40,113 nt of DNA. Source: a virus. A program made the position numbers and the translations under genes. The notes under the pieces are model-generated. The model was not told the DNA's origin, did no database searches, and was given only the letters and a program-made list of their open reading frames with translations. The stretch lies in UHGV virus genome UHGV-0369821; one strand, written 5' to 3'. This document shows, piece after piece, positions 980 through 37,542 of the stretch (within the stretch, counting starts at the first letter, position 1; the number at the start of each line of letters is the position of its first letter).

Positions 980-1548
980 TATGCTAGCTGGAATTTTTTA
1001 GATGCATCTTTTTGAAAGGAGGTGTAAATGGACGGGTGGCACAAGCAATGACCCATTCGAGATAACACATACGCATCTGCCTCATTATTGTTTTTGGGGT
1101 CTATCTGCCACTTTTTAAGAACAGCAGTCATTATAAGTCCTTTTTCTCCAACACCTTTTCCGGTAGCAAATTTCTTTAGGGTTGTTGGAGGGAAAACAAT
1201 TATATTTGAAATCCCTGATGAAAAAAGGATGTGTTTTACCACTCCTCCAAGCTCTCCCAAATGAACGATTTTGCCGAACCGCGAAAAGGCATAATTCTCT
1301 ATACATACCAGAACCTTTTCCGCTGGCGTCTGCGCTAGGATTGTGTCCTTGATGTTCTCTAGTTGGTTGGCAAAATCAGAAAGCCTCTGGGGGCCTTTGT
1401 GAGGGCTTGAAAGGGTGGTTGTATAATCAGAGGCTACTCCTGACTTATGATGAAACACAGAACACCCTGTAGCGGTTAGTGAGAGGTCTAAACCCAGAAA
1501 ACAGTTGAACCCTTCAAAAAGCTTTGTTTCTACTTTGTTTTCTTCCAT
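979..1548 (-). CDS. RuvC-like Holliday junction resolvase
   Basis: N-terminal FLGLDLSLTATGCSV matches the RuvC motif ILGIDPGSRVTGYGV. Catalytic Glu lies in LVCIENYAF (cf. FAIEQVF). C-terminal EADAYVLSRMGH matches DAADALAIAITH. Confidence 0.75.
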   Translation of the reverse strand: MEENKVETKLFEGFNCFLGLDLSLTATGCSVFHHKSGVASDYTTTLSSPHKGPQRLSDFANQLENIKDTILAQTPAEKVLVCIENYAFSRFGKIVHLGELGGVVKHILFSSGISNIIVFPPTTLKKFATGKGVGEKGLIMTAVLKKWQIDPKNNNEADAYVLSRMGHCLCHPSIYTSFQKDASKKFQLA

Positions 1549-1790
1549 GATTTTTTCTCTGATGAAGCGAATCTAAAATCTACTAGTTCAAAACGCGATT
1601 CTTTTTGAGCCATTACTATTCCTCCATTGTAGCTCTTCTTGAGGACAACAACGCCAAACGGAGAACTTTGCTCGAATTCGGCCTCATTGTTTTTCTGAAT
1701 AGCGGCGATAGCTTCGGCTGTGGTGAACCAAACATCGTCCTCTGTTTCTTTTCTCTTAGGGGGGCGCCCCCTTCTGCTTTCACTTTTCAT
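1530..1790 (-). CDS. hypothetical small basic protein
   Basis: 86-aa ORF with an RGRPPKRK basic N-terminus. Overlaps its neighbours in an operon-like way. Confidence 0.4.
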   Translation of the reverse strand: MKSESRRGRPPKRKETEDDVWFTTAEAIAAIQKNNEAEFEQSSPFGVVVLKKSYNGGIVMAQKESRFELVDFRFASSEKKSWKKTK

Positions 1791-2154
1791 TATCTAATTC
1801 TTCCTTTGCTAACCTATATGCCTCTGCTCCTTCCATTGCTGGATTATTGTTATATATTTCCACCGCTTTGCGTAATCTTTTTTTTACTATCTCACCTTTC
1901 TCTGTAATTATTTCCAAAGGATTTTTGTAGCCCAATTTAATTAGAATACGCATGGAGAGAATAATAATATCCGCGCATTCAAAAGCCATATCTTTTTTTG
2001 TTTTTGCCGAGATGAGTTCTTCCACCTCTTGTTTGAGATGACCAATTAGGGCTTCTTTAGTTTCTTCAACTCCTAGAAAATTTTTAAAGACGGTTGTTAT
2101 CTCTCTGGAAATATTATAAATCCTAGTGTTTCTTTCGTTCTCGAAAAGATTCAT
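1780..2154 (-). CDS. MazG-like nucleoside triphosphate pyrophosphohydrolase
   Basis: EVEELISA...ECADIIILSMRILIKLGY...KKRLRK fits the all-alpha MazG/NTP-PPase EExxE...E/D..D pattern. Size is about 124 aa. Confidence 0.55.
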   Translation of the reverse strand: MNLFENERNTRIYNISREITTVFKNFLGVEETKEALIGHLKQEVEELISAKTKKDMAFECADIIILSMRILIKLGYKNPLEIITEKGEIVKKRLRKAVEIYNNNPAMEGAEAYRLAKEELDNEK

Positions 2155-2204
2155 AGTTTAATTCTCTCCGTAAATAATTCTATCGATATATTTTTTAATT
2201 TCAC

Positions 2205-2513
2205 TTAGTGCCATAACATAGTTTTTTTGACAAATCGGGGTCTTGCTGCACCAATGAAAAGGTTAGCTTTTAATTCTTTAGTGTTGTCTTTTTCTCTTGT
2301 TTTTAACAAGGTTTTTGCATATTCCATGGCAAAATTCTCTCTATAAAACTCTTTCCATTCTACCGACCACTTTTTTAGAATAGTGGGACATTTAAAATCT
2401 GGTTTTAAAAAAGTAGGAACATTAATTTTTACTACTCGCGTATAATTGTTTCTATTGTTCTTATCACATACTAAGAAACAATTTTCTGATTCAATAGTGG
2501 TTTCGTATTCCAT
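2205..2513 (-). CDS. hypothetical protein (start chosen at internal Met; longest ORF extends to 2714)
   Basis: An internal ATG at 2511-2513 abuts the stop of the next gene at 2518. The longer version would overlap 2518-2871 out of frame. Confidence 0.4.
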   Translation of the reverse strand: MEYETTIESENCFLVCDKNNRNNYTRVVKINVPTFLKPDFKCPTILKKWSVEWKEFYRENFAMEYAKTLLKTREKDNTKELKANLFIGAARPRFVKKTMLWH

Positions 2514-2517
2514 ACAA

Positions 2518-2871
2518 TTAGACTTTTGGTTGCCAGTTGTCACAGAACCCTTCATAAGCTTGTGCAAAGGGACAGCGAAAACACTCACTACAGGGGGTAG
2601 CGTAGGGATGCGTCCCTTCGTGAGCACAGTTCTCACAGATTCGTTCTGCTTGCGGAGTAGTCCACATTCTGTATCTACGGCGGCATTTCCACGCTTCCCG
2701 AACAACCATTCCATAGCTACATTCTTTATCTCTAAAGTGATGAAGCAATTCTGTGTTTATTTGGTAGCCACGGTCTTTCAATACACTACGAACATGGGTG
2801 TGAAAAACAGAGGCTCCGCCCCATGTCACTCCAAAGTCGTAAAAAGCTTTCTGTTCAGGCGTCATTTTCAT
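2518..2871 (-). CDS. Cys/His-rich putative zinc-binding protein
   Basis: CENCAHEGTH...CSECFRCPF...C cluster in a 117-aa ORF. Confidence 0.45.
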   Translation of the reverse strand: MKMTPEQKAFYDFGVTWGGASVFHTHVRSVLKDRGYQINTELLHHFRDKECSYGMVVREAWKCRRRYRMWTTPQAERICENCAHEGTHPYATPCSECFRCPFAQAYEGFCDNWQPKV

Positions 2872-2970
2872 TTTTTTCTTTTATTTTGAATAAAATATAT
2901 TGAATTAGCATGCAAATTGCCAATGCGAGTGATAGCAAAAATGCAACAATATCCCATAAATTAACGACAA

Positions 2971-4089
2971 TCATTTCTTCACAATCCTTTCTTTTTGTTT
3001 TCTTTCTTCAATAAAGTCGCCAAATATTTTATTGAATTGCTCATTCGATATTTTTCTTGTTTGCTTGCCGTTCACGATATTCTGATGCTTGTGAAAAGCA
3101 TCTTCCAACTTAGCTACAGAAATAGCAATAGCATCTATGAAGTCTTCTTGAGGAATAACTTGCTGACATCTAGCTATACCTTCCTTCTTAAACGTTCTTA
3201 CAGTGTTTCCCTCCTTTAGGGCAAGACCGTCAATCTCTTCACCGTTTTTCAGGAGTTCAAAGCACGAATCTTCAATTTCTTTGGCGACTTTTTGTGCAAG
3301 TTTCGCCGTAAAAAACAATTTACTCCTTTCGGAGGGATTCATTTGTATCAGACTGGAAGAAAACTTTGTAGAAGGTACTGCAATCGTCTGCATCGCATTG
3401 ATAGGGGCCTTGCAACGTGAGAACCCTTTGCAGTATTGACAATGGGCATTAGCAATGGGTTCGCTATTCTCTTTAGTTCTCCTGCATATCTCCACTACCT
3501 CTTGTTCAGCCTCCTTAATATCCTCTTCACTGTACCTTACTATCACAGGATAAGAGGTGACAAGGGGTTGAACAATGGCGCATGAGACCGATTTTATGTG
3601 GCAGTCATGATAATTCCTTTCAATATGTTGCTTACAGCATAGGGCTAACCCTCTAATCTGGTGATTAGTTTGGGTAGATTCTTGCTCTATGGGTCCCGTT
3701 TTGTAATCAATAATCAACAAATGGAATCCTTCTTCATTGTGTTTGCCAAAAACCAAGTCAGGTTTTCCAGAAAAAAGAGGCTCTTCACCCTTTAAAAAGA
3801 AGCATCTTTCTTCCTTCATAACCTCCTCAAACTTATCATCCCCTGCCCAAATAGAAGCAACTTCTGTTGCAATCCTTTTACAGGCAATCATTAGCTTCGT
3901 TTCTTCCTCATTGAGATGAATGTTTTGGTAAGCAAGATATTGATGAATGCGGTTGCCTCTTTCTGCCATTTCGGAGGTTGAGCCGTTATCTTCTATGTCG
4001 TATTTCAAGGAGTATGGACAACAGGCTAAGCGAGCCAAGCTTGAGCATGAAGGAAGTCCTTGTCTTTCTGTGTTTTTTTTCGTGTTCAT
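2971..4089 (-). CDS. PD-(D/E)XK nuclease of the RecB/Cas4-like family with a cysteine (Fe-S-type) cluster
   Basis: GKPDLVF...HLLIIDYKTG gives the motif II Asp and motif III (ExK-type IIDYKTG) of the RecB nuclease domain. An N-terminal Cys (CSSLARLACC) plus C-terminal C-x2-C-x5-C (CQYCKGFSRC) resemble the Cas4/AddB iron-sulfur ligands. Confidence 0.7.
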   Translation of the reverse strand: MNTKKNTERQGLPSCSSLARLACCPYSLKYDIEDNGSTSEMAERGNRIHQYLAYQNIHLNEEETKLMIACKRIATEVASIWAGDDKFEEVMKEERCFFLKGEEPLFSGKPDLVFGKHNEEGFHLLIIDYKTGPIEQESTQTNHQIRGLALCCKQHIERNYHDCHIKSVSCAIVQPLVTSYPVIVRYSEEDIKEAEQEVVEICRRTKENSEPIANAHCQYCKGFSRCKAPINAMQTIAVPSTKFSSSLIQMNPSERSKLFFTAKLAQKVAKEIEDSCFELLKNGEEIDGLALKEGNTVRTFKKEGIARCQQVIPQEDFIDAIAISVAKLEDAFHKHQNIVNGKQTRKISNEQFNKIFGDFIEERKQKERIVKK

Positions 4090-4178
4090 ATCTTTATTTA
4101 TTATTAGAATCTATATCTCTCATACATATTTTATCAATAATGACTATGATTCCACACGTGATTATAGTCATAACAACA

Positions 4179-5057
4179 TCATTCATTCCCTTCTTTCTTT
4201 CTGAATATAGGTTGTTCTTCTACTTTGTTATTATCGTCAGAAAAAGCTTCCTCTTTGGAAATTGCGCCTGTCTTGATAGCATTAAAAAGGCCAATCAGCA
4301 TGACAATTTCTGATTCCTTGCAACTCTCTATCTTGTGCTTCAAATAAGCTTCAAGCATTTCTTTTGTGACCCCTATCTTCGAGAAAGCTATTACACAGTC
4401 TTCTACCCTTTGCAAAAGCGGCTTATCAGAGGCTCTAAGGGTGTTTTGGCACGCCTCGGAAGCCTCTTGTCTGATGAAGTCCGGGAGAACTGACCAAATG
4501 CACGCACGAATGCGCCTTGATGCCATGTTTGCGCAAATTTCATATATATCCCTGTCCGAGTAAAGAGCATAGCCGCCTTCTTTAGTATCTCTCCAATGAG
4601 GAACGGAAAAAGCAATCTCTCTTCTAATGTTGTTTTCTTTGTCCCAGCAGAATGCTATGCAGTCAGAGCAAATGCGGCCTTTTTCGTCCACATGTTCTCC
4701 AATCTTCCTCCAACCCGCCTCCGCATTCCCATACGCCGTTAGGCAAGCGTTTGCTAAATGGATTGTCTCTCCGGAAATGGAAGAACCACCTCTTTTGTAT
4801 TCAAAGAAAGCCGTGTTCGCTAAATGCCGAAAAGAGCAAAGCTGGCGTATCTTAGAAGAAACTTCCAGCATATTTCTCGGCATTTGTTTTGCTATATATA
4901 TAGAGGCGAGAGCTTCCAAAGATTCTTTGTTAGAAAGGACGTTGGCTAGAGGATTCCCAGCGAGAGGAGCAATCATGGGCATACTATCGCCAGCCGCAAA
5001 TGGTATTGATTCGTTTGTTTCTGACATGGCCTCATAATATCGTTTTTCCCTCCGCAT
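4179..5057 (-). CDS. hypothetical protein; possible single-strand annealing protein (weak RecT-like resemblance, mainly synteny with the nuclease)
   Basis: 292 aa, directly downstream of the exonuclease on the same strand. MPRNMLEVSSKIRQL loosely resembles RecT LPRHMTAERMIRI. The functional call is weak. Confidence 0.45.
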   Translation of the reverse strand: MRREKRYYEAMSETNESIPFAAGDSMPMIAPLAGNPLANVLSNKESLEALASIYIAKQMPRNMLEVSSKIRQLCSFRHLANTAFFEYKRGGSSISGETIHLANACLTAYGNAEAGWRKIGEHVDEKGRICSDCIAFCWDKENNIRREIAFSVPHWRDTKEGGYALYSDRDIYEICANMASRRIRACIWSVLPDFIRQEASEACQNTLRASDKPLLQRVEDCVIAFSKIGVTKEMLEAYLKHKIESCKESEIVMLIGLFNAIKTGAISKEEAFSDDNNKVEEQPIFRKKEGNE

Positions 5058-5080
5058 GCAATATTTTTCTTTTTTTTTTC

Positions 5081-5110
5081 TTGCGTATGACAGGTGACAT
5101 GTCTATAAAT
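5081..5110 (+). promoter_or_regulatory. candidate sigma70-like promoter in a divergent intergenic region
   Basis: TTGCGT, 17-nt spacer, TATAAA. Only a weak match to the -35 consensus. Confidence 0.25.
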
Positions 5111-5503
5111 AGCCGCATGCAGAAAGAACTACCACAAGAACAACTGTCGGCATTTTCTAAGTTTGCAGTCCAGAACGAAGAGTTGTGCAAGCTCATGATG
5201 CAAAGAGTGGGATTCAAAATCACTCCAATGGTTTGGAACAAAGCGAAATGGAATCCGGCTCAAATGTCTGTCAAAAAGCTCACCCACCTCCGCGCCTTTT
5301 ATCCTGCGGCATTTGGGTTAGAGGATGAGCCTAATAGCGATTTTTTGAAGTCTCTGTACTACCTCCACATTTCCAACAGAATACTTTCAGGAGAAATTGA
5401 ACCTCTTATTGAAGATAAGGATTTTGCGACCTATATGCCTTACGCCCATTTTGTTTTACCGATAGACGATTTTACAAAAAACGCCCTTTCTAAATTCATG
5501 TAA
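5087..5503 (+). CDS. hypothetical protein (start uncertain: 5087, 5099 or 5117); possibly replication-associated by position upstream of the DnaC-like gene
   Basis: ORF in the divergent orientation to the 4179-5057 gene. Several in-frame ATGs lie after a promoter-like TTGCGT-17-TATAAA. Confidence 0.4.
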   Translation: MTGDMSINSRMQKELPQEQLSAFSKFAVQNEELCKLMMQRVGFKITPMVWNKAKWNPAQMSVKKLTHLRAFYPAAFGLEDEPNSDFLKSLYYLHISNRILSGEIEPLIEDKDFATYMPYAHFVLPIDDFTKNALSKFM

Positions 5504-5512
5504 AAAACGAAA

Positions 5513-6145
5513 ATGAACTATCCACTTGACGACTATCCGCTAGAAGAAATGGAACGAAAATCTGTTCCGAGGTTGGTAAAAGACATTTTAGATTTAGACC
5601 AATTATTGAAAGGGTTAGATAAAATACCGCTAACAAGTGAAGAAGAAAAGGAAGAGTGGAGAAGGAAGGAAAAAGAGAAAGAAAGGGTGAAAGGCTGGGA
5701 AAAACGGCTAAAAGAATCAGGCGTTCCTTTAGCGTTTTACCAAGCTTGCGTTCAAAAAAAAATCGTTCAATGCAAGCTTTTCCCGGGGATGAATCAAGTA
5801 AAAGCTCGTAGCTGGTTTTTTGCCTCTTCGAAGAAAGGGAAAACCTTTTCCGCTTGCAACCTAATTGCGAAAGAATTGTGGGAGGGAAGAAGAGGGTTGT
5901 ATTTAAAGGCCGTCGACCTAGAAAGAGAATTATCAAGTTTTCGTCCTCAAGAAGAACTCTTAAGGAAATATCAAAGAGTACCTTTTCTTGTAGTGGACGA
6001 TTTTGAAGGAATGCGGATGAGTGTGAATTCATCCTGCAATTTTATAGCATTCCTCAAAAAAAGAAACGATTCCGGATTGTGCTCTTTTATTATAATGAGA
6101 GAACGTACTTTTTTTGCGGAACAGATAGAACGGGCGACTACTTGA
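5513..6145 (+). CDS. DnaC/DnaI/IstB-like AAA+ helicase loader
   Basis: ESGVPLAFYQACV matches the DnaC/DnaI sGIPkry..a.f motif. Walker A is ASSKKGKTFSA, Walker B is FLVVDDFEG. Confidence 0.65.
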   Translation: MNYPLDDYPLEEMERKSVPRLVKDILDLDQLLKGLDKIPLTSEEEKEEWRRKEKEKERVKGWEKRLKESGVPLAFYQACVQKKIVQCKLFPGMNQVKARSWFFASSKKGKTFSACNLIAKELWEGRRGLYLKAVDLERELSSFRPQEELLRKYQRVPFLVVDDFEGMRMSVNSSCNFIAFLKKRNDSGLCSFIIMRERTFFAEQIERATT

Positions 6146-6242
6146 GCAAAACAATAAGTAACACGGAATAAGATTGTTATAAAAAAGCCCTGTAGCCATT
6201 TTCGTAGGCTACAGGGCTTGAATGCCGGATTTTTATGACAGA

Positions 6243-6932
6243 CTATTGCACCCTCTTTTCAGGTATTAAAACGTTATTTAATGAATAGTATTTTTTTGTA
6301 TAGTGATATTTTTTAGAATACTTTGAATAACCTAAATTGTGATTGTAGTAAAGTTCATCTCCATACGATGAACAAGTGTATTTAGCATTATACTTTAGAT
6401 AAGAAGAGTTAGAGAAATAGGCAATTTTATTTTTATCTGGTCTTTGAAAATCGCCATAAAAAAGCATCTCTCCTTTTTTCCAAAATACAAATTTATTTGA
6501 GCCGAGGACGGCATTAACCATGTTGTCTATATCGTCATTGTTTTTCTGGATGCAATACTCACCAAAAGCTGGCAAAAATAGGTATCGGAAAAAAGTTTCG
6601 CTATCTGTTAGATCGTCTTTGTTTTTAATGCTCAAGATTCCATTATGGCAAAAGTACCAGCCATTTCCATTCCAGCCATGAACGTTTTTTTCTGAAATTG
6701 AGCCATGCGTTTTGATGCGAGCATGCAAGAGGACAACATAATCTTTTGGGATTGTGTTCCACAAATTAACAATTTCTTTTTTTAAAAGGGTACGAATAAA
6801 ATATTCTGGCTTTTCTTGGCATGTACCTCTTTTAAATGCGGCTAAAAAGAAGCCGTCAGGGTTGTTTGTGATGCAATTTTGAAAATGTTGATTGCCAATA
6901 TCTTTTTTGATTCCGTACGCGATAATACACAT
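6243..6932 (-). CDS. Ntn-hydrolase / class-II glutamine amidotransferase-like protein (GATase_4-type)
   Basis: The protein begins MCIIAYG, with Cys2 as the predicted nucleophile after Met removal, as in MCGI of GAT-II enzymes. It sits next to an amidoligase gene, a conserved pairing described for this family. Confidence 0.5.
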   Translation of the reverse strand: MCIIAYGIKKDIGNQHFQNCITNNPDGFFLAAFKRGTCQEKPEYFIRTLLKKEIVNLWNTIPKDYVVLLHARIKTHGSISEKNVHGWNGNGWYFCHNGILSIKNKDDLTDSETFFRYLFLPAFGEYCIQKNNDDIDNMVNAVLGSNKFVFWKKGEMLFYGDFQRPDKNKIAYFSNSSYLKYNAKYTCSSYGDELYYNHNLGYSKYSKKYHYTKKYYSLNNVLIPEKRVQ

Positions 6933-6947
6933 ATTGTTTTTTCTAGT

Positions 6948-7253
6948 TTAGTTTTTTCCGTATTTATCAATGATAGATTTAACGCCTAGAGTTAATTCTA
7001 GGGCTAATTTTTCTTCTTCTTGTGTTTCGTAAAATATTTTTATGAAAGTATATTGCCATTGAGGTGAATATGACATTTTCATGCCTTTTTTGATTAAATA
7101 GTTTATGACGTCCTGCCTTATCTTTCCAAATGTTTCTGCTGATAGTGTTTTTTTGTAAACATTTACAAATTCAATGTTTAAACTGCCAACCAAGGAAGAG
7201 ATGCAACACTCTAGCTTTTTCTTCTCCATTGTTGTATCGGTTTTCTTCTTCAT
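6948..7253 (-). CDS. hypothetical protein
   Basis: 101-aa ORF between the Ntn-hydrolase and amidoligase genes. Confidence 0.45.
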   Translation of the reverse strand: MKKKTDTTMEKKKLECCISSLVGSLNIEFVNVYKKTLSAETFGKIRQDVINYLIKKGMKMSYSPQWQYTFIKIFYETQEEEKLALELTLGVKSIIDKYGKN

Positions 7254-7341
7254 AGGCCGATTGCGTATAAAAAACTAATCCAAATTATTGCACCAGCAAT
7301 TAAAACAATTAAATCTTCTATTTTTTCTTTTATTTTTTTAT

Positions 7342-8592
7342 TCATATATTTTCGAGTAATTTATATAATTCTTTTGTCATACATTTTTCTCTTAGAAAAG
7401 ATATATATTTCGGAGCAATCTCCTTTAATTCTAATAATGATATTTCTCTATTCTCCATCGCGAAGAGATAAGTAAAGTAGCAAAAATCTACTATTGTTTT
7501 AATCCTTTCTTTTTTGACTGTTCCCTTGCCCCTCCTAAATTCTATTGTGGCATTATTACTGAAATTTAATTCACAATACCTATTATTCGAAATTTTATCA
7601 AAGAGGAGCTTTTGGCCTTTTGGGGATGCAGAAATAGGGTGGACGCCGTATTGTTTTAGCTCACAAACACCCGGAATTGTGAAACAGTATTGATTGTTAT
7701 CTCTTCCAAATATTTTATTAACCAGTTCGTAAGAAAGAGAGTAAAAACATTTTTTCAGCAAAAGTTCTACACTTCTTTCACACTTGATTCGTGAAACGTG
7801 AACATGTAGCCCCGTTTCTTTAGTTGATTGAGAATAAGAGCCGAATAACGGGAAAAATTCTTCGCATAGCAAATCAATAGCTCCATTTTTTTTCAACAAT
7901 GATTCAATAGGCAAAGGTCGGGTAGTTAGTTCTGTTCCTCCTCTTTCGTCACGTAAGGAGCCGTCATGCTGGAAGTAAAAAAAATTAGAAAACTTATTGT
8001 AAATAGAACGGTTTTGGTGATAAAATTCTATTTCCAACCCTACAAGGGGAGCTTTTAGGGTTGAGTTTTCAGGGATCCAACCATGAGGCCGAAAGTGGTA
8101 TCCGTTCATTTTTGTTTCTATCAAGTCTTTTTCCGAAAAATCACTTATAAGGAACTCCTTTGTGCTTAAATATCTCAAAGCCGGGAAGACATGCTCTATT
8201 ATATAACTCCACTCTTTTTCCGGGATTTGTTTTAAAGTGAAGGCATCTAAGAAGCACTTAAAGATTTTTATAAAATCACTAGAGTATTTTTGTTTTTGGT
8301 TTAGCTCTTTGTCGGGAACTGGAATTATTGTTTGAGAAAAAAAATTACACATTGCCCATAGAGTTGCGTTCCTTATCAATTTAAAATTTTTTTTCTCAAG
8401 CACAATCCCGTTTAAATCTTTAACTCCTGCAAACCGCAAAAAAGCGGTTGCTTTTCTCCTTCTTAAATACAAGTCCTTTGCTTGTTGCGTCTTGTAGCCA
8501 AAATCAAAAATTTTATTTTCACAAAACAAATAGTAATTCTCTCTTACAAATTGTTTCAGAAATTCTACTTTATCTTTTTCTTTTTTATTCAT
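7342..8592 (-). CDS. amidoligase (glutamine synthetase / GCS2 carboxylate-amine ligase-like, Amidoligase_2-type)
   Basis: LVGLEIEFYHQN (E-x-E metal site), FQHDGSLRDERGGTELTTRPL and ETGLHVHVS (H-x-H) match conserved blocks of YbdK/GCS2-like amidoligases. Confidence 0.6.
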   Translation of the reverse strand: MNKKEKDKVEFLKQFVRENYYLFCENKIFDFGYKTQQAKDLYLRRRKATAFLRFAGVKDLNGIVLEKKNFKLIRNATLWAMCNFFSQTIIPVPDKELNQKQKYSSDFIKIFKCFLDAFTLKQIPEKEWSYIIEHVFPALRYLSTKEFLISDFSEKDLIETKMNGYHFRPHGWIPENSTLKAPLVGLEIEFYHQNRSIYNKFSNFFYFQHDGSLRDERGGTELTTRPLPIESLLKKNGAIDLLCEEFFPLFGSYSQSTKETGLHVHVSRIKCERSVELLLKKCFYSLSYELVNKIFGRDNNQYCFTIPGVCELKQYGVHPISASPKGQKLLFDKISNNRYCELNFSNNATIEFRRGKGTVKKERIKTIVDFCYFTYLFAMENREISLLELKEIAPKYISFLREKCMTKELYKLLENI

Positions 8593-8593
8593 G

Positions 8594-9166
8594 TCAAATA
8601 ATGATTCGGAGGTTTTCGTTTTTAGTATTCAGACCTGAATAAGTTTTCCATATGTCTCCAATAATTGAATTAGAATCGTGCAGTTTATAAAAGATATTTT
8701 CGCTCAAATTCACCAACAACCCTTTTTTTTGTAAAATAATCCCACATTTTTTATAGTATTTTAGAGCTAAAAATTTGTTTGAAGAAAAGGCCCTAGTGAT
8801 TGGATAGCTACTATTTAGTTTTTTTTCCTCATATTCGGGGAAATGGCCTAGGGCCGGTTTTGTTTTAAAACGGGCAGATGATAGCGGTTTAACCCCAACA
8901 ATATAAACACCGGCGTTTTTTTTCCCGCCAGAAGTCCTAAGAACCGGCAAATAACCTAAAGTGTTTCCAAAAACAAAAATAGGGCTGATAAGCGTTTTTT
9001 GAGTTGTACCGGTATCTAAATTTTCTATTTTCGCGAAAAAATAAACGCTAATAAAGGATTGTAGGTCTCTAATTACAGAGCAATCATCTTGAGCGTGAAT
9101 GGTTCCAGAATAAGCGGGAATTCTGCTTTTCGCGGTCCTGTATAGTTTTATTGAGTATTTATGCAT
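8594..9166 (-). CDS. hypothetical protein
   Basis: 190-aa ORF. Its stop lies 2 nt from the amidoligase start. Confidence 0.5.
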   Translation of the reverse strand: MHKYSIKLYRTAKSRIPAYSGTIHAQDDCSVIRDLQSFISVYFFAKIENLDTGTTQKTLISPIFVFGNTLGYLPVLRTSGGKKNAGVYIVGVKPLSSARFKTKPALGHFPEYEEKKLNSSYPITRAFSSNKFLALKYYKKCGIILQKKGLLVNLSENIFYKLHDSNSIIGDIWKTYSGLNTKNENLRIII

Positions 9167-9178
9167 GTTTTTTTAGAG

Positions 9179-9595
9179 TTATTCCCCGTAAAGGAATTTT
9201 TTTGTGTTTAAAATTTCACCTTTATATGAAATTTTAAAATCTTTATTTTTCTCTACGCATAAGTGCGCATGAAGGAAAGCTTGCTCTTTTGTTAGTTTTA
9301 TTGTTCGTGAGGGCAGGAACATAAATTTTTCTTCTAAAGCTTTATGCCAAATTTCATTTATTTCTCCAAATATCACTATTCCGAGACAAGGATAATGTGC
9401 TTTTTCTTTGATTTGTATTTTTCTGTTTTTTTGCAAAATAAAAATTAGGCCTTTCTCTGTTTTTTTTAGTTCTTTAATTATTGTTACAACAGATAAAACG
9501 CTTCTTTTATTTTCTTTTAAAAAAATAATGATATGTGTTTTTTTTATTATTATTTTTTTTGAAGCATCTATAATGTTTTGAATTTCAACATTCAT
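9179..9595 (-). CDS. hypothetical protein
   Basis: 138-aa ORF, first of four overlapping small genes. Confidence 0.45.
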   Translation of the reverse strand: MNVEIQNIIDASKKIIIKKTHIIIFLKENKRSVLSVVTIIKELKKTEKGLIFILQKNRKIQIKEKAHYPCLGIVIFGEINEIWHKALEEKFMFLPSRTIKLTKEQAFLHAHLCVEKNKDFKISYKGEILNTKKFLYGE

Positions 9596-9878
9596 CGAGC
9601 GTCAAGGTTTTGAAGTTAAATCTATATTCTAATCCGTCCTTTAAAGGAGCCTTCCTAAAATCGCTCAATAAGTCTCCTTCGGGGCGGTTTTCTAGGCGAA
9701 AAATGAGCTTTCGAGGTTTTTTGGAGACGTCAAAAACCTCAATAATTGAGCCTAATCTCCAATCAGCTTTTATCATGCGGTGAAAGGTTCTAAGCCCGTG
9801 TGAAAAATTTAAATAAAGAACAGGGCAAACACGCCTTTCTTCTTGAGGGTTTTCAAACTCAAATTCAAAAACTTTCAT
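9585..9878 (-). CDS. hypothetical protein
   Basis: 97-aa ORF that overlaps its neighbour by 11 nt. Confidence 0.45.
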   Translation of the reverse strand: MKVFEFEFENPQEERRVCPVLYLNFSHGLRTFHRMIKADWRLGSIIEVFDVSKKPRKLIFRLENRPEGDLLSDFRKAPLKDGLEYRFNFKTLTLDEC

Positions 9879-9882
9879 AGCT

Positions 9883-10230
9883 TCAAAAATATGCGAGATT
9901 ATAAAAAATTAAATTTTCAAAAGGTGTTATCTTGTGCCATTTTATATAAATTCCAACTATTTCCGTTTTTGGTTCAAAGTGGTAATTATAAATAAATTCC
10001 TTAAAATATTTATCTTCTTTCTTTTTTATTATTTCTATAGCATTAAATCTGATGCCGTTTAGCAAATCTATTAGTATTTTTTGTTCCAAAACGTTGGATA
10101 AGTTTTTTTTAAGCTGATATATTCGCCCTTGTTCTTCAAGGCTGATTTTTCCTTTTAGCTTTAAGTCTGTGTCTTTTCCTAAAAAATAGGCGACGGCTCC
10201 AAAATTTGTTGTATAATCAATAGAACTCAT
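9883..10230 (-). CDS. hypothetical protein
   Basis: 115-aa ORF. Confidence 0.45.
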   Translation of the reverse strand: MSSIDYTTNFGAVAYFLGKDTDLKLKGKISLEEQGRIYQLKKNLSNVLEQKILIDLLNGIRFNAIEIIKKKEDKYFKEFIYNYHFEPKTEIVGIYIKWHKITPFENLIFYNLAYF

Positions 10231-10510
10231 ATTCCCTTTTCAAAAAAAACATATTGCTATAGTTAACGTCATAAAACAGTGAATTTCTTTTTTTCAAAAT
10301 CTCTTCAAAGGATGATTTGCTTCTTTTTTGCTCTTCTATCATTGCGGATTCAGGGAAGGCATGAGCAAAATCAATATGCGCTTCGAGGTTTGGCAATTCC
10401 TCCCCCGTTACTGGTCCTGCAAAGATAAAATAAATATTAGCGCGAACGAAAACAAAATACTTATCTTCTCTCTTTTTTTTAAAAACTTTCACAATATGTT
10501 TAGCGTCCAT
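10217..10510 (-). CDS. hypothetical protein
   Basis: 97-aa ORF that overlaps its neighbour by 14 nt. Confidence 0.45.
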   Translation of the reverse strand: MDAKHIVKVFKKKREDKYFVFVRANIYFIFAGPVTGEELPNLEAHIDFAHAFPESAMIEEQKRSKSSFEEILKKRNSLFYDVNYSNMFFLKREYEFY

Positions 10511-10702
10511 TAAGTGCGAAATTTACATGGTTAAAAAATTCTTCAGGCGATAAAAAAGTAAAGATAGTCTCGTAAGTCTTCTGCCTCCGTTACTAATTCC
10601 AAAGCGTATTGTTTTACGCCTTTTTTCCATTTAGTTCGGGCGGGGCTTTTCAATATTTTTTTATTACTTCTTCTCTGTTGTTTTTTCATTTTATTTTATT
10701 CT

Positions 10703-10942
10703 TTATTTTATTCTTTTCTTCATGCCTTTTACTAACTCGCTCGCCCGTTTATAGACGTTATCCTTAGTTCCTACGACAAAGGTTTGCCAACCGCAATTCA
10801 TGCACCCGTATTCATAACTTCCCTTAGGATTCTGCAATGTCTCATAAACCAAAACGTCCATCGGAAGCCAGCAAAATGGGCATCGCAACTTTTTAAATTT
10901 CTCTTGTTTCTTTTTTCCCATGTTTTTTGTTTTTTCTCTCAA
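10703..10942 (-). CDS. zinc-ribbon protein
   Basis: CPFCW...CMNCGW gives two CxxC pairs in 79 aa. It is the first gene on the minus strand leaving the divergent hub. Confidence 0.5.
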   Translation of the reverse strand: MREKTKNMGKKKQEKFKKLRCPFCWLPMDVLVYETLQNPKGSYEYGCMNCGWQTFVVGTKDNVYKRASELVKGMKKRIK

Positions 10943-12030
10943 GGGGTCTTTCTCTATTCTTCCTTCCGTCCCCTTTCATGTTTTTATTCTATCTTTTTTC
11001 CCTCATAAGTCAACAACTTTTATTTCTTTTTTTCTCAATTAGCAAGTTTTTTTCTCTCCCTCTAACCTCTTGACAAACTGCTTTTTCCTCTCTCCCTTCC
11101 CTCCTCTTTGCCTTACTTCCTCCCTCGGGGGGGGCCTTTAGGGGGGGGGCAACTCCTAACTCCATCGGATAACTCCATCCTTTTTCTCGATGCGGCTTCT
11201 AACCTCTTCCCGCTCCTCTTCGCTCTCTTGACCTTTCCATCGGTCAGGAGGGCGTAAGGGGCGTAAGCGGGGGAGTTAAACCCCGGCCGGGACGAACCAG
11301 TTTGCCCTCTTCCTTAAAAATGGTTTCTCCCATAGTGGACCCTCTTTTGCCATTTTTACGTGTTTTTTTAGGCGGATCCGTCATAAGTAGCAAACTGTTA
11401 GAGGCTAGCGAATTTTAAGAAAACCTGTGTTCCTAGGGCTTGCCAAAAATCGGGTTTTGTGCATGTTTCATGTTTATTTTCTCTAGATTGTCTCGCTCTT
11501 GAGTGTTTTTTGTAGAGCCTCGGCGATTCGGTGCGTGCTTTGAGCGGCCTTCAAACTGGCTCAAAAGCGTACCGATTCCGTTGCATTTGGGCGCCTTCTG
11601 CCTGCTTCTGCTTGTGTGCGCACCGACAATCTTCATAACTCGTTGACTGTCTATCATACTTCGCATAACACACATAATGCCAAATAGGGCACATTTGAGG
11701 ACAATCCCGAATATCGCGCTACAATGGGCCTAGCGCGCGCCGCATATCTGCCATGAGTAATGTATAGGCCCATCCTCTAAAAAGCCCGTGTGCGCAATCC
11801 TCGCAAGCCGTTTTTCGGGCAAATCGTAGTAATTAGAATAATTATTGAGGTTTTGCCCACTTTAGGCCATGTTGCGGCGTTGCTTCGGAGCCACCTAGCC
11901 ATGAGGGACTGCAAGCCCGTCAGCACCGCGCCACCCCTAGGTGCTTCTTGCTAGGACGTCCCTACAGGCGGGAGGCGGGGAAAAATCGCCGGGTGTTTCG
12001 CGCTGGACAAAGAAGGTATCACCCTGCATA
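10943..12030. promoter_or_regulatory. 1-kb non-coding divergent hub: CT-rich tract, G8 and G9 runs, GC-rich core with a 9-bp inverted repeat; candidate divergent promoters and origin
   Basis: No credible ORF. Transcription direction and purine/pyrimidine skew both switch here. G8 at 11127-11134 and G9 at 11141-11149. Inverted repeat ATGGGCCTA (11724-11732) / TAGGCCCAT (11765-11773). Confidence 0.5.
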
Positions 12031-12492
12031 ATGAGCAAAAAGGGAGAAGAGAAAGAGAACAAAGAAATGGCGAGAAGAGCAGGAGACGTAGAGATGAACG
12101 GGAAATTAGTGAGAGAGTTGGTGGAAGAAGTGAGGGGGGAATTGGAGCGAGGGGAGGTGAGGACGGTAGAGGAGGCGTTATCGAAGCGAGGAGTGAGCCG
12201 GAAGCTGTTTAGGGAGATGGGAGGGATAGAGGAGTGGAAGGGAGAGAGGAGGAGAGGCGAGAGAGGAGGAGAGGAGCGGGAAGAGGTAGAGGAATTGGGG
12301 AAAGAGGAATTGGGGAAGTTTTTAAGTAGAGTGATAAGAGGGAGGGAGCTAGGGATGGGGGGAAAGGAGAAGATGAGTGCGGTAGGGTTGTATATGAGGT
12401 TGAAGGGATGGGACAAGGTGAAAGAGGAGAGGGAGGAGCTGGTAGGAGAGGAGATGAGAGAGTTGCTGAAAAAAGACAAAGAGAAGAGTTGA
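12031..12492 (+). CDS. highly charged (E/R/K/G-rich) low-complexity protein encoded almost entirely by purine codons
   Basis: In this frame, third positions are A/G except where the amino acid forces a pyrimidine (Asp, Asn, Phe, Tyr, AGY Ser). T and C fall at position 2 for Val/Leu/Met and Ala/Thr. That frame-specific pattern argues for real coding. Confidence 0.45.
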   Translation: MSKKGEEKENKEMARRAGDVEMNGKLVRELVEEVRGELERGEVRTVEEALSKRGVSRKLFREMGGIEEWKGERRRGERGGEEREEVEELGKEELGKFLSRVIRGRELGMGGKEKMSAVGLYMRLKGWDKVKEEREELVGEEMRELLKKDKEKS

Positions 12493-12526
12493 AGAAGAGG
12501 AGGAGGAGAGATAAACTAAAGAGGAG

Positions 12527-13168
12527 ATGAGAAAAGGGTTGGACGAAGTAAAGATAAGGAAAGAAGAGCTGGAACATGGCTTTTTGAGGGGGGTGAAGGA
12601 GATGGTGAGGCAGAAGGTGGAGATGGGGTTAATGCCATGGGGGCGGCGGGTATTTTATCCGAAGATGGTATTGAGGGCGAGGCCGCAGAAGTTGAGGGAT
12701 TTTTTGATAGAGGAGGAGGTATGGGAGTTGCAGGAATGGAGCAAGGATTCATTGGAGAGCAATCCTGAGCGGCACCATTTGTACGAATGCGGAGGGAGGT
12801 ATTATATGGGATTGTACTTTAAGAGTACGAGGGGGCGGAGCATAAGGAGGAAGATAAGTTTAGGGACAAGGGAATTGGAAGAGGCGAAAGAGAGGAGGGA
12901 CGAGTTTTATAAAGAGTGGAGTGGGAAGGGATTGAAATGGTATATGGCAGACGGGGCGAAATGGAATATGAAGTTACCGGGAGTGCCGGAGGTAGGAGAG
13001 TTGAGCAAATTAGACAAAAGGGCGCGGAAGGAGACGGAAGAGGCGGCGGTACAGGCGTTGAAGGAAGCGCGGGAGAGTTGGAAGAGGATGAGGTGGGAGC
13101 AAGTGAGGAAGGAGGAGTATTGGGAGGCAGAGGAGAAGAGGAGCCGGAGTTTAAGGAAATGGAAATAG
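12527..13168 (+). CDS. charged protein with an integrase-type / AP2-like DNA-binding motif
   Basis: GGRYYMGLYFKSTRGRSIRRKISLGTRELEEAKERRDEF resembles the three-strand-plus-helix integrase N-terminal / AP2 DNA-binding module. No recombinase catalytic domain follows. Wobble positions are purine-forced. Confidence 0.5.
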   Translation: MRKGLDEVKIRKEELEHGFLRGVKEMVRQKVEMGLMPWGRRVFYPKMVLRARPQKLRDFLIEEEVWELQEWSKDSLESNPERHHLYECGGRYYMGLYFKSTRGRSIRRKISLGTRELEEAKERRDEFYKEWSGKGLKWYMADGAKWNMKLPGVPEVGELSKLDKRARKETEEAAVQALKEARESWKRMRWEQVRKEEYWEAEEKRSRSLRKWK

Positions 13169-13179
13169 GAGGTAAGGAG

Positions 13180-13377
13180 ATGGAAAAAGAAGTAGGAATA
13201 ATGGTAAAGTTTGGGAAAGGAAGGGTAATGGAACTGCATTTGTTTCCGAACAAGGAGGCAATGAGGAAGTGGCGAGGAGAGGACAGCGAGCAAGACGCAG
13301 AGGGGGAGTACCGGGAGTGGAGCGTACCGTTGGGGGTGATAGAGGACTTATGGGCGGCGGCGATGGGAGAGGAATAA
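13180..13377 (+). CDS. small hypothetical protein (65 aa)
   Basis: AGGAGGT lies 7 nt upstream of ATG 13180, immediately after the stop of the preceding gene. Wobble positions are purine-only. The upstream part of the listed 12916 ORF overlaps gene 12527-13168 and is treated as spurious. Confidence 0.4.
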   Translation: MEKEVGIMVKFGKGRVMELHLFPNKEAMRKWRGEDSEQDAEGEYREWSVPLGVIEDLWAAAMGEE

Positions 13378-13401
13378 AAAATTAGAATAATAATAAAAAG
13401 T

Positions 13402-13968
13402 ATGAAAATAATCGTAGACATAGGGCATGCGCGGAACACAGGAGCGCGAGGGAACGGGCTGGAAGAGCACGCAGTAAGCGAGGAGATAAGCAAAGAGTTG
13501 GTGAGGGAGTTAAAGGCGGCAGGGTATGAGGTAGTTGAGTTGGACTTTCCGCACCTTAGTAACGCGAAGGACTTGGAAGCGACGATAAAAGAGGCGAATC
13601 GGATGGGTTCGGATATAGGAATATCGTTGCACTGCGACAGTGCAAGTCATTGGGTAGGAGGGGAAGAAGAGGCGAACCCTAAGCCGCATGGAGGGCATGT
13701 GTGCTACTATCCTGGGAGCAGTAAGGGGAGGAAGTTGGCAGAGGCGGTAGGAGTGCGTCTTAGCGGGCTATTGCCTGGGCGAGCAGAGGCAGTGGTAGGG
13801 AGGAAGGACTTGGCGGTATTGAGGCGAACAAGGCCGGTATGGATATTGTGTGAGTGTGGATTTATAACGAATCCGGGAGATGCGGAGGTGATGAGGGAGC
13901 ATCCGGAGAAGATAGCGAGGGCGATAAGCGAAGGAGTGAAGGATTATTTGAAATATGCAAGAGATTGA
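13402..13968 (+). CDS. N-acetylmuramoyl-L-alanine amidase (Amidase_3 family) endolysin
   Basis: MKIIVDIGHARN (cf. IVIDAGHGG), GYEVVEL, DIGISLHCDSA (cf. ADLFISIHAD), VLRRTRPVWILCECGFITNPGDAEV (cf. VLR.T..P.VLvE.GFisN..D). No signal peptide. Confidence 0.85.
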   Translation: MKIIVDIGHARNTGARGNGLEEHAVSEEISKELVRELKAAGYEVVELDFPHLSNAKDLEATIKEANRMGSDIGISLHCDSASHWVGGEEEANPKPHGGHVCYYPGSSKGRKLAEAVGVRLSGLLPGRAEAVVGRKDLAVLRRTRPVWILCECGFITNPGDAEVMREHPEKIARAISEGVKDYLKYARD

Positions 13969-14446
13969 TAAAGAGGGAGTTGGAGAGCTTGTGCACAGCA
14001 TTGCGCACGGGGACAAGTGGGAGGAGGTTGAGGACAGGAAGAGTTGTTGCGTATGGGTAATGAGGAGCAAGGACAAGTTTCTTGTGAGGGAGGGGGTATT
14101 AAAGAAATGGCCGAAAAGGGGCTGGAAGGGGCGAGCATTAAGCAAAGGAGGGAAATGCTATGCGCAATCGGCAGACAGCATATTGAAGGAGGCAGAGGTA
14201 GAATGGGAAAGGAAGCCGGAGTATGCGCACATGTACTATAGCGGGATGCTGGGAGGAAAGGCGGCGAAAGACGCGACGTGTTTTTTAGAGGAAGCCAGAG
14301 TATTTAAGATGCCATTGCCGAGGGGGAGGTATAACAGCGATGCGTGGGAGTTTGTAAGGTGCCGTCTTGTAGAGGAAGTGGTAGAGAAGCCGATGGACGA
14401 CGAAATGGACATTTGGTTGAAGTACAGGAGGGACAAATGGTTTTAA
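13955..14446 (+). CDS. candidate terminase small subunit (by position and translational coupling)
   Basis: 163-aa ORF ending in ATGGTTTTAA, which overlaps the start of the large terminase. No motif-level support. Confidence 0.45.
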   Translation: MQEIDKEGVGELVHSIAHGDKWEEVEDRKSCCVWVMRSKDKFLVREGVLKKWPKRGWKGRALSKGGKCYAQSADSILKEAEVEWERKPEYAHMYYSGMLGGKAAKDATCFLEEARVFKMPLPRGRYNSDAWEFVRCRLVEEVVEKPMDDEMDIWLKYRRDKWF

Positions 14447-16017
14447 GTGAAATAATAGAGTTGCTGAAAGACCCGATGTGGCGAATATCCCATTTGTATG
14501 AGATAAAATTGACGGATGGGAACATCATTCCTTATAAGCCGAGGAAGTTTCAGGAGGAGCTTCACAGGGCCTGTTACTGTGAGGGGAAGAGGAGGTTTTT
14601 AATACCTAAGAGTAGGCGGCAGGGTTGCTCTACGGCGATTGGAGTGATGATGGCTGACATGGCGGCGTTTGAGGAGGGGTGGAAGCTGGCTTTGGTGGAC
14701 AGGACGTTAGGAGACGCGACGGAAAAGCTTACGGACATTGTGAGGGTAGCGTTGGACAGCTTGAAGAGGAAATTGCCTGGGATGTTCGACATAAGTTACA
14801 GCAAATCAAAGATAAACGTTAAGATGGTAGGAAGGAGGTCGAGCGAGATAGTTGGGGGTAAATATTTTCGAGGCAGTGGTCTTGGATTTGCGCACATATC
14901 CGAGCTTGGTACGATTGCGACCAGTGAGCCGAAGCGAGCTGCTGAAATCGTCAACGGCACATTCCCTGCGGCTAAGGATGGCTTTATCTTTGTGGAGACG
15001 ACCGTACGAGGGGGGAAGCGAGGGGTATTCTATGAGAACGTGATGAATGCGCTAAGCGTGCCGGAGGGGAAGCGAGGTGAGAAAGATTTCCATGTAGTGT
15101 TTTTGCCGTGGTGGAGCGACGAGAATAATATATCGGAGGGGGTGGAGGAGATAACGCCAGCTACGGAGAGCTACTTTGAGACGCTTAGGAGCAAGAGCGG
15201 GATTGTCGTGACGGAGGCGCAAAAGAGGTGGTGGCAACAGGCCAAGCGGCAACATGGCGTATCAATGAATGAAGAGTACCCGTCCACCTTGGAAGAGGCT
15301 TTTGAGGTCCCTATGGAGGGGGCTATCTTGGAGGCGGTGTTGGACAGGGCCATGCAGGAGGGGGCTTTCAGGAACTTGGTTTACGATAAAACGAAGCCGT
15401 GTTATTGCACATGGGATTTGGGTGCGCCCCTGAATACGATTAACCTTGTGTTTCAGTTGGACGGCCCCTTTATTAACGTCCTTGAGCTGGACAGTGGTTT
15501 GCATGCGAGCGAGCGCGTAGCAGAGCGTGTAACGAGGCTTAAAAGCAAATATCCGACCTTACAGGCGAACTTCCTTCCGCATGACGGCGGGTATATGACG
15601 GACACAGGGATGACACAGGCGCAAATGTGGCAGGAGGCAGGGTTGCCGGGCATCCAGTTGTTGCCCAAATCGAAAGACAAATGGATTGGCATCAATTACC
15701 TTTTAGGGATGTTCAACATGTTTCGGTTTGACACCAACGGTACGAGCAAAGCGTACAGTTACTGGTTGTCCTACAGGTGCAAGCCGGAGGTGGGAGAGGG
15801 AGGCGTGTTTAAGAATGAGATTGTACATGACAACGCATCCCATTGGGCAGACCCGTTGAGGTATGTTGCAGAGGCGAGGATGAACAACCTGTTGACGGCA
15901 GGAGTTGTAACGCAGGACAGCAAAGCCGGGATAACCTGTACCTTTGGGAAATATCATCGTGAGCAAAATGTTGGACATAACTGGCGGCGGGGGTTTGAGC
16001 ATACTTGCCGCATCTGA
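14437..16017 (+). CDS. terminase large subunit
   Basis: Deviant Walker A KSRRQGCST (cf. SRQLGKT of T4 gp17) and Walker B-like VVFLPWWSDE. Size and position upstream of the portal fit. The longest ORF begins at 14344, but the ATG at 14437, coupled to the upstream stop, is preferred. Confidence 0.8.
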   Translation: MVLSEIIELLKDPMWRISHLYEIKLTDGNIIPYKPRKFQEELHRACYCEGKRRFLIPKSRRQGCSTAIGVMMADMAAFEEGWKLALVDRTLGDATEKLTDIVRVALDSLKRKLPGMFDISYSKSKINVKMVGRRSSEIVGGKYFRGSGLGFAHISELGTIATSEPKRAAEIVNGTFPAAKDGFIFVETTVRGGKRGVFYENVMNALSVPEGKRGEKDFHVVFLPWWSDENNISEGVEEITPATESYFETLRSKSGIVVTEAQKRWWQQAKRQHGVSMNEEYPSTLEEAFEVPMEGAILEAVLDRAMQEGAFRNLVYDKTKPCYCTWDLGAPLNTINLVFQLDGPFINVLELDSGLHASERVAERVTRLKSKYPTLQANFLPHDGGYMTDTGMTQAQMWQEAGLPGIQLLPKSKDKWIGINYLLGMFNMFRFDTNGTSKAYSYWLSYRCKPEVGEGGVFKNEIVHDNASHWADPLRYVAEARMNNLLTAGVVTQDSKAGITCTFGKYHREQNVGHNWRRGFEHTCRI

Positions 16018-36523: not shown

Positions 36524-36553
36524 TAGCCCCCTCTCCCGATTTCGGGGGGGGGG
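36524..36553 (+). repeat. C-run / G10 homopolymer hairpin immediately after the tail fiber gene
   Basis: CCCCCTCTCCCGATTTCGGGGGGGGGG followed by a T-rich stretch. G10 at 36544-36553. Confidence 0.4.
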
Positions 36554-36633
36554 CATAACTCTTTTATAATAAAGCAATTATACAACAACTCTTCTCAACT
36601 ACCGCAATTAACAACGAACCAGAACTAGAACCA

Positions 36634-37453: not shown

Positions 37454-37542
37454 ATACTCGACATGAACAACACTTCATCCTAGTATACCAACAGTTGCTA
37501 TTCCCGTAGCCACTGTATATAGGTGTTTCAATGTCATACGGA

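Follow-up and report, generated by a model that had tools for sequence, protein, structure and literature searches.

The control regions closest in kind to the one described here are the left end of T7-group phages, with its terminal repeat, leftward A0 promoter and rightward A1-A3 promoters, and the divergent early/late regions of lambdoid and P22-type phages. G tracts in control regions are known from other settings: the mitochondrial conserved sequence block II (CSB II) carries a tract of the form G5-6-A-G7-8, the pilE locus of Neisseria has a G-quadruplex, and poly-G/C tracts in promoter spacers phase-vary surface genes of Neisseria or Bordetella. Features that recall each of these systems occur together in the hub, an interval of about 1 kb between the two gene arms of UHGV-0369821, the genome of an uncultured, podovirus-like phage of ~40 kb from the human gut (40,113 nt, analysed as a whole and called the window below). 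The hub is a genuinely non-coding and strongly conserved control region: its architecture and both of its promoter motifs are conserved, it has no detectable RNA structure, and it contains a conserved G tract of variable length. Our preferred reading, to which we give an even chance, is that the hub controls divergent transcription, with two promoters pointing outward (P_L and P_R), a set of binding sites arrayed upstream of P_R, and a G tract of the quadruplex type that separates the two promoter domains. The lineage is common in metagenomes of the human gut, where it is represented by dozens of contigs of ~40 kb, and its control region supplies concrete, testable elements.

Conserved architecture, promoters and core of the hub

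Relatives were collected by a terminase-based scan of IMG/VR, which gave 19 loci, and by DNA-pattern scans of viral and metagenome contigs, which gave ~45 further true relatives. They come nearly all from human-gut metagenomes, many on contigs of 39.3-42 kb, and the hub architecture is common to about 60 related human-gut contigs. Clade G1 is the window's own clade (97-99% identity), clade G2 is the large main clade (87% terminase amino-acid identity), and in a distant clade, whose terminase identity is 66%, the hub is short (~480 nt). The contig L002 has a terminase gene that is 99.8% identical in nucleotides to that of the window, with a hub that is only 81-88% identical. The order of elements in G1, L002 and G2 is the same, namely P_L, pyrimidine tract, double G tract, small islands, core, P_R and purine-rich sequence, and the comparison with related phages thus bears out a hub that is real, conserved, non-coding and divergent.

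The absence of a credible open reading frame (ORF), noted in the original prediction, is upheld: the longest frame in the hub encodes 80 aa on the minus strand (11433-11675), neither the hub ORFs of the window nor those called in public assemblies match PHROGs or Pfam, and no ORF is conserved within 10922-12066. Gene polarity diverges as described, with the minus-strand genes ending at the hub and the plus-strand genes beginning beyond it. The placement of the hub between the arms stands, but the flanking gene starts given before (10942 and 12031) do not, the likelier ones being ATG 10921 and ATG 12067; ATG 12031 overlaps the -10 hexamer of P_R and is missing from most relatives.

The leftward promoter P_L (10986..11013, minus strand) is a sigma70-type element, TTGACT-16-TAGAAT, which scores 10/12 in a consensus scan, has an A-rich stretch upstream and is followed by the conserved sequence CATGAAAGG. 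The pattern TTGAC(A/T)-16-TAnnnT is present in 47/47 covering loci, and the variants of the -10 hexamer (TATAGT, TATTAT, TATGAT, TAGAAT) keep T1, A2 and T6 and change at non-consensus positions only. The rightward promoter-like element P_R (12004..12032, plus strand) reads TGGACA-17-CATAAT, also with a score of 10/12, and TGGACA-17 is found in 64/64 loci, followed by TGTAAT in 54 and by CATAAT in 10. The -11 adenine and -7 thymine are present in P_L in all loci and in P_R of the window (CATAAT), while 54/64 P_R loci have G at -11. Purine-rich and presumably transcribed sequence begins directly 3' of the P_R -10 hexamer. No further conserved sigma70-like promoter was found within the hub, where the other candidates are specific to single clades (e.g., TTGAGA-16-TATCAT on the minus strand in the main clade). 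One relative (L009, 1-470) has an extra purine-rich coding segment 5' of the first gene of the plus-strand arm, replacing the hub core and leader, so that the content just 3' of P_R varies.

These elements suggest a simple scheme in which host RNA polymerase would start leftward at P_L, a near-consensus sigma70 promoter, into small early and DNA-metabolism genes, and rightward transcription from P_R would enter an operon for lysis, terminase, portal, capsid and tail. P_R, which in most relatives is without the key -11 adenine, would probably need an activator. Of the early/late switch proposed for this interval, what is borne out is a promoter facing outward at the left end and a promoter-like element at the right end, and a role for them in switching between the arms is a reasonable suggestion.

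A contig that carries clustered regularly interspaced short palindromic repeats (CRISPR) bears on the host and on the choice of promoter model. L005 (1-240) is a chimera in which a CRISPR leader and two copies of the repeat GTCGCACTCCGCAAGGAGTGCGTGGATTGAAAC are joined directly to hub sequence. The hub part begins ~25 nt right of the second G run; in phage genomes it has TTC, the protospacer-adjacent motif of type I-C systems, in front of it. The repeat is type I-C-like, the lone complete spacer matches another relative (L012, 1184-1216) at 100%, and one Akkermansia-type CRISPR spacer matches the counterpart of 11150..11245 in relatives. As a scan of 185,579 species genomes found the repeat in Akkermansia only (L089-L092), the host is probably Akkermansia, a correction from Bacteroidota, and promoter models of the sigma70 type rather than the Bacteroidota type apply. 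The original prediction had named both kinds of model; sigma70-type elements were indeed found, and the Bacteroidota models are probably the wrong ones in light of the CRISPR evidence. Neither a description of this lineage nor a characterised Akkermansia phage isolate turned up in the literature searches made.

Upstream of P_R lies the core element (11628..12030), a non-coding segment of ~400 bp whose length is fixed. In it, blocks without variation alternate with others that occur in two versions. The distance from its first block, M1, to P_R is 338-340 nt in every locus that has both, and 47 distinct core sequences of 426 nt each align almost without gaps over 430 columns, with an overall identity between G1 and G2 of only ~67%. 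The blocks are M1 (58 nt); CCTCGCAAGCCGTTTT; CGTA..AATTAGAATAATTATTG..GTTTTGCC; CCCCTAGGTGCTT; and GGGGAAAAA...GGGTGTTT.GCGCTGGACAAAGAAGGTATC. M1 (11628..11685) is A+T-rich and nearly invariant in the alignments, and a motif scan finds in it four 9-mers of the form NCATAAYNC at 11633, 11654, 11663 and 11672, the last three in tandem, which makes it a candidate array of protein-binding sites. The 17-mer AATTAGAATAATTATTG (11831..11847) is an A+T-rich sequence inside the GC-rich part of the core and is exact in all core-bearing loci. Blocks of 58, ~33 and ~34 nt are 100% identical between genomes whose terminase genes share only a fraction of 0.52-0.54 of their four-fold sites, which shows that purifying selection acts on the invariant blocks.

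The distant clade keeps a diverged CA-rich block like M1, CC(C/A)CTAGG, GGGAGAAAAGCGG and GAAGAAGGGT..TGTAAG, and is without TGGACA. Two contigs (L004 and L087) are mosaics of both block versions, indicating that core blocks can be exchanged independently. An apparent tie between the zinc-ribbon gene that starts the leftward arm and the core-block version was discarded because it is confounded by phylogeny and broken by the same mosaics. Conserved blocks at fixed distances are a requirement for an array of protein-binding sites, and the core may thus work as DNA in the form of such an array, probably timing the firing of P_R.

Two features that had been singled out in this part of the hub carry less weight. 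The segment at 11700-11800, reported as locally GC-rich, has 54% GC, which does not exceed the value for the right arm. The 9-bp inverted repeat ATGGGCCTA / TAGGCCCAT (11724..11773) is present as described, with its arms at 11724-11732 and 11765-11773, but is not conserved: it has a mismatch in L001, 6 bp remain in L002, and there is no pairing in the main clade. It also stands near what chance would give, ~0.2 such repeats being expected on an estimate of our own.

The double G tract

The two G homopolymers of the original prediction are confirmed as G8 at 11127-11134 and G9 at 11141-11149, 6 nt apart. Together they form the double G tract G8-CCTTTA-G9 (11127..11149, plus strand; GGGGGGGGCCTTTAGGGGGGGGG in oligonucleotide form), a G-quadruplex motif of four G3+ tracts whose length is hypervariable. 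The pattern G7-N3-12-G7 has one site in the window against 0.00 expected from 100 shuffles and occurs once per relative. Of the 57 loci that extend over the site, 56 have the tract, in 25 variants, and only the CRISPR chimera L005 lacks it; the tract lies 490-535 nt upstream of M1. Its runs have 7-11 G or are split by a single A or T (G9-A-G5, G6-A-G5 and G5-T-G6 in several lineages), and its central loop consists of CTTT plus zero to several bases, 4-11 nt in total. Since each run either has at least seven G or is split by one A or T, four G3+ tracts always remain, and the variants have G4Hunter scores of 2.1-3.3. The pattern fits selection for quadruplex-type folding and not selection for a slippery homopolymer.

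The length of the tract is variable, as had been anticipated: in genomes that are ~99% identical, the first run has 8, 9 or 10 G and the second 8 or 9, while A/T runs of 7-8 compared in the same genomes are unchanged in all but one. The variation could be biological or could be technical, from Illumina or assembly error. On the preferred reading of the hub as a divergent control region, the double G tract most likely folds into a structure of the G-quadruplex type that would mark or insulate the boundary between the promoter domains, and its length variation would be a side effect of the sequence rather than a mechanism. If such a structural role is true, the tract would show clearly that selection can preserve a quadruplex motif within a regulatory region of a phage, and the role would explain the assembly breaks at this site described below.

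The G tract is flanked by pyrimidine-rich sequence on both sides. The C/T-rich tract on its left (10943..11126, plus strand) spans P_L and corresponds to the long CT tract noted earlier, with a purine fraction of 0.16-0.24 per 100 nt (just 16-24% purines on the plus strand at 10900-11100). It is purine-rich on the sense strand of the leftward arm, and its composition is kept in relatives while its sequence is not. Sequence and alignment define a second pyrimidine-rich tract on the right flank (11150..11245, plus strand). Small conserved islands lie between the G tract and the core, e.g., GGGAC(G/T)AACCAG(T/C)TTGCCCT, and one island found by alignment, CCGGGACGAACCAGTTTGCCCT (11286..11310), overlaps a candidate micro-ORF of 35 aa on the minus strand. 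The micro-ORF has equal length in three clades, but it shows no coding constraint in the main clade, where polymorphic sites by codon position number 12/6/9 with no third-position excess and 9 changes are synonymous and 21 non-synonymous, and it has an in-frame TAG in 4 haplotypes.

The composition of the two arms also changes at the G tracts (~11100), from a GC content of ~31-40% on the left (620-10942) to 45-53% on the right (12000-36000). Taken with the contrast between hub and terminase in L002 and the mosaics L004 and L087, this arm contrast makes the hub look like a border at which modules are swapped. The only other long G run in the window is a G10 at 36544, which forms a terminator-like hairpin (CCCCCTCTCCCG / CGGGGGGGGGG, 36524-36570) directly 3' of the gene at 35504-36523, with a folding z-score of -3.84.

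Several observations weigh against divergent transcription control in the form given here. In the distant clade P_R is reduced to TGTAAG without a -35 hexamer and in 54/64 loci it reads TGTAAT, and P_R may therefore not be a sigma70 promoter at all. Both start sites are predicted from consensus matches and composition, and the pyrimidine tract reaches 230 nt right of P_L, so that the leftward start could lie further right, at a promoter not found in the scans. A length of 1 kb is unusual for a control region, and no regulator was identified; the zinc-ribbon gene adjoining P_L is absent from the main clade. The four 9-mer repeats in the A+T-rich invariant block would also suit an origin. Finally, quadruplex folding is a prediction from the motif, and hairpins with G:C and G:U pairs between the G runs and the flanking C/T tracts are possible on the plus strand; these hairpins were rejected as candidates because, although they form, their stability does not exceed that of shuffled sequence.

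Origin, packaging and other alternatives

A replication origin, with an initiator binding the core or M1, melting at the 17-mer or M1, and bidirectional synthesis from the hub, is an unlikely alternative with no independent support. The skew inversion on which the proposal of a bidirectional origin was based is real: GC skew runs from -0.20 (10501-11500) through +0.36 (11501-12500) to +0.71 (12001-13000), AT skew across the hub goes from -0.33 to +0.35, and the cumulative GC skew, checked as suggested, has its minimum at 11001-12000. The purine fraction is 0.77-0.87 from 12000 onward. However, the skew reflects purine loading of coding strands and follows gene orientation; it is positive also at 5001-6500, where two plus-strand ORFs lie, and the inflection at the hub is thus not independent evidence of an origin. 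As a caution, a skew inflection at a switch of gene polarity is not to be read as an origin. The proposal draws support from the cumulative skew minimum, from the core as non-coding DNA of fixed length with conserved blocks and from the four NCATAAYNC 9-mers of M1 together with the invariant A+T-rich 17-mer. No DNA polymerase was found in the genome, in which the sole replication-related match is a weak IstB/DnaC-like one at 5513-6145, so that the phage probably relies on the host replisome and has to have an origin at some position.

Nevertheless, the DnaA box TTATCCACA has no match in the hub with at most one mismatch and no conserved match with at most two, and a search for longer iterons and over-represented 7- and 8-mers found nothing conserved beyond the M1 9-mers, which remain the sole possible iterons, confined to one block and with their tandem pattern lost in one member of the distant clade (L018). 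The putative loader module at 5000-6145 is also 5 kb away, and by analogy with lambda O and ori an origin would often be situated there. This module consists of two plus-strand ORFs inside the minus-strand arm, the second being the one with weak similarity to IstB/DnaC (E 0.0026), and the local skew changes sign along with them; it may be a helicase-loader module and an alternative place for the origin. A second stretch of ~1 kb without an ORF of more than 89 aa occurs at 37454-38513, with a lower GC content of 38-40%, inverted repeats at 37571-37637 and at 37671-37706 / 38094-38129, and no match to Rfam within it; it may be another non-coding element, possibly an origin or packaging site.

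The coding strand at 12040-14000 is extremely purine-rich, with a GC skew of up to +0.71, 77-87% purines and C down to 2-7%. The proteins encoded there are rich in E, K, R and G and have homologues in this lineage only, and purine repeats of 15-17 nt occur within 12213-12317.

It is distinctly unlikely that the G tracts mark a physical break in virion DNA, such as a cos-type cut or the edge of a terminal repeat, with the hub as the junction of the genome ends. What speaks for such a packaging or terminal region is that contigs end exactly at the right edge of a G run in at least four verified cases (L002, L081, L085 and L044), with three more probable ones (L057, L061 and L084). Only verified contig ends were used, because locus boundaries returned by the searches are not always contig ends (L030 vs L008). 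In two of the verified contigs (L044, 1-42, and L081, 1-44) untrimmed Nextera adapter at the contig end is fused straight to the base after the second G run. The hub also heads the operon with the terminase genes, the minus strand reads C9-TAAAGG-C8 where T7 and T3 terminal repeats have CCTAAAG beside C runs, and the left end of T7 likewise has ~0.9 kb of non-coding DNA with divergent host promoters. Most assemblies, however, read through the G tracts, and near-identical complete assemblies of 40.09-40.11 kb are differently permuted, so that the assembly graph is circular and has no fixed end. Together with contig starts that differ in lying after the first or the second run, these features make the breaks look like a problem of coverage, heterogeneity or assembly at a variable G-rich site. 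The motif CCYAAAG is not enriched in the window (13 found vs 15 expected), and a T7-like terminal repeat was dropped as a candidate on this ground and because no repeat is present at the window ends. The best small-terminase candidate (13955-14446) is 2.8 kb away, and the order of lysis, terminase and portal genes resembles that of lambdoid and P22-type phages with headful packaging.

The same contig ends would be explained in another way if the paired G tracts were a functional G-quadruplex/R-loop element that makes a real discontinuity in the DNA, as a priming, nicking or packaging-cleavage site, with the core as a nucleoprotein scaffold that reads the G tracts. This possibility is equally unlikely. 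If true, it would explain why independent assemblies break at the run edges, length heteroplasmy could tune early infection, and the tract would represent a type of quadruplex-based cis element that is not known from tailed phages.

A phase-variable switch, in which slippage of the G tracts makes a promoter more or less active or shifts the reading frame of a small ORF on the minus strand and so turns expression on and off in the phage population, is very unlikely. The variation of the G runs at ~99% identity next to nearly unchanged A/T runs speaks for such a switch, as do minus-strand ORFs of 42-125 aa that the lengths of the tract create across the C runs in some G1 genomes. The tract, however, lies 114 nt upstream of the -35 hexamer of P_L and 855 nt upstream of that of P_R, outside both promoters and not between the -35 and -10 hexamers of any detectable promoter, and a total motif length of 20 to >29 nt keeps no helical phasing. 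The ORFs across the tracts have no counterpart in G2 and no family match and are located on a strand with many purines and few stops, and the length differences may be Illumina or assembly error at G homopolymers. The persistence of lineages in which the runs are interrupted by A or T, and are thereby stabler, argues against slippage itself as the function, and the suggestion that the G tracts phase-vary a promoter is not sustained.

A gene for a non-coding RNA, with the conserved 400 bp transcribed into a structured molecule, is extremely unlikely. Strong conservation without an ORF, the fixed length and several -10-like hexamers in M1 would be consistent with it. Nevertheless, Rfam gives no match at gathering score in the whole window and only noise at E-values up to 10, a scan for tRNA and tmRNA finds no genes, and our own helix-covariation scan finds no helix of at least 5 bp with compensatory support on either strand. 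RNAalifold was run on 11 and on 47 sequences; for the 47 it gives -37.8 kcal/mol over 430 columns with a covariation term of -1.87, and 7/74 predicted pairs show a compensatory change, most pairs joining invariant columns. The folding z-scores of the core are near zero (-0.13, +0.48 and +0.29), and mosaics of its blocks persist. In a six-frame stop map, no open frame common to the core is stop-free over more than 92 nt in all 47 sequences, and the core, neither coding nor a structured RNA, thus acts as DNA. An RNA anti-CRISPR that mimics a CRISPR repeat was also considered and rejected, as there is no match in the window.

The least likely alternative of all is a decayed or missed protein-coding gene, for although public gene callers call ORFs in the interval (94 aa on the plus strand in the main clade, 42-166 aa in the window's clade) and the micro-ORF keeps its length across clades, the called ORFs differ in strand and frame from clade to clade, contain one-nucleotide indels and have no family matches, no frame is stop-free in all sequences, and the micro-ORF bears the marks of non-coding sequence given above.

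Genome context and comparison with known systems

The minus-strand arm (620-10942) contains many small ORFs, amidoligase-like and GATase-like genes, a DUF2800/PD-(D/E)XK nuclease and a RuvC-like resolvase. The amidoligase-like gene (7342-8592; PHROG matches, E ~5e-6) stands side by side with the GATase-like one (6243-6932), whose match to class II GATases is weak and below the cutoff (PF13230, E 0.0017); amidoligase/GATase gene pairs are tied to DNA base hypermodification in some phages. The first gene of this arm (10703..10921, minus strand, from the ORF list) encodes a zinc-ribbon protein of 72 aa with a CxxC...CxxC pattern, which has no significant family matches and, by tblastn over the loci, is restricted to clade G1. 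Small early proteins adjoining the hub (10543-10689 in the window and 5589-6253 in L010) have the motif (K/N)xYA(L/Y)E(L/F)(V/A)E..(E/D)D, and the 48-aa ORF of the window at 10543-10689 looks like a short member of a family that includes main-clade proteins of 89 and 129 aa.

The plus-strand arm, from ~12067, encodes an endolysin, the large terminase (14344-16017), a T7-type portal (PF12236), a protease/scaffold-like protein, the major head protein, tail proteins and very large proteins of the internal-virion type. The gene order 3' of P_R is small genes, endolysin, small-terminase candidate, large terminase, portal, protease/scaffold and capsid. The first gene (12067..12492, plus strand), with a start placed by inference at ATG 12067, encodes an E/K/R/G-rich protein of 141 aa whose homologues are confined to this phage lineage. 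A virion RNA polymerase, which would have implied unusual promoters, was dropped as a candidate: the 2058-aa protein (29295-35471) has no sequence match in the PDB, and the DxDGD RNA-polymerase motif was not found in the large virion proteins searched (29295-35471, 22183-26475, 27359-29317 and 26453-27358).

Against this background, the hub can be set beside four known systems. It resembles the left end of the T7 group in having a non-coding stretch of ~0.9-1 kb before the first genes in a podovirus with a T7-type portal, putative host-type promoters in both directions, and a CCTAAAG-like motif beside C runs. It differs in that no phage RNA polymerase gene was found among the large virion proteins searched and no phage-type promoter is present, the genes diverge on both strands, CCYAAAG is neither repeated nor enriched, no terminal repeat or fixed end is detectable in the assemblies, and blastn against the INPHARED phages returns no similar record for the window.

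The likeness to the divergent early/late regions of lambdoid and P22-type phages lies in a putative late promoter followed by lysis, terminase, portal and head genes in that order, in putative host promoters of the sigma70 type, and in the large terminase, whose nearest matches, ~30% identical, include Stx2-converting phages. Unlike those regions, the hub is flanked by no gene for a repressor, Cro or Q-type regulator, is ~10 times as long as the lambdoid operator region, and contains a G-quadruplex motif and a conserved non-coding element of 400 bp.

In common with CSB II and pilE, the hub has a conserved, length-polymorphic G tract in a non-coding control region that tolerates a single non-G interruption and has quadruplex potential. 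In contrast to those systems, an R-loop or hybrid quadruplex is unsupported here, as no promoter is known to transcribe through the tract, and the mosaicism of the hub is the only link between the tract and priming or recombination. With the phase-variable promoter tracts of bacteria it shares G/C homopolymers of 8-10 nt that vary between near-identical genomes, but the phage tract lies outside any promoter spacer or conserved ORF, consists of two paired runs around a short pyrimidine loop, and persists in interrupted variants.

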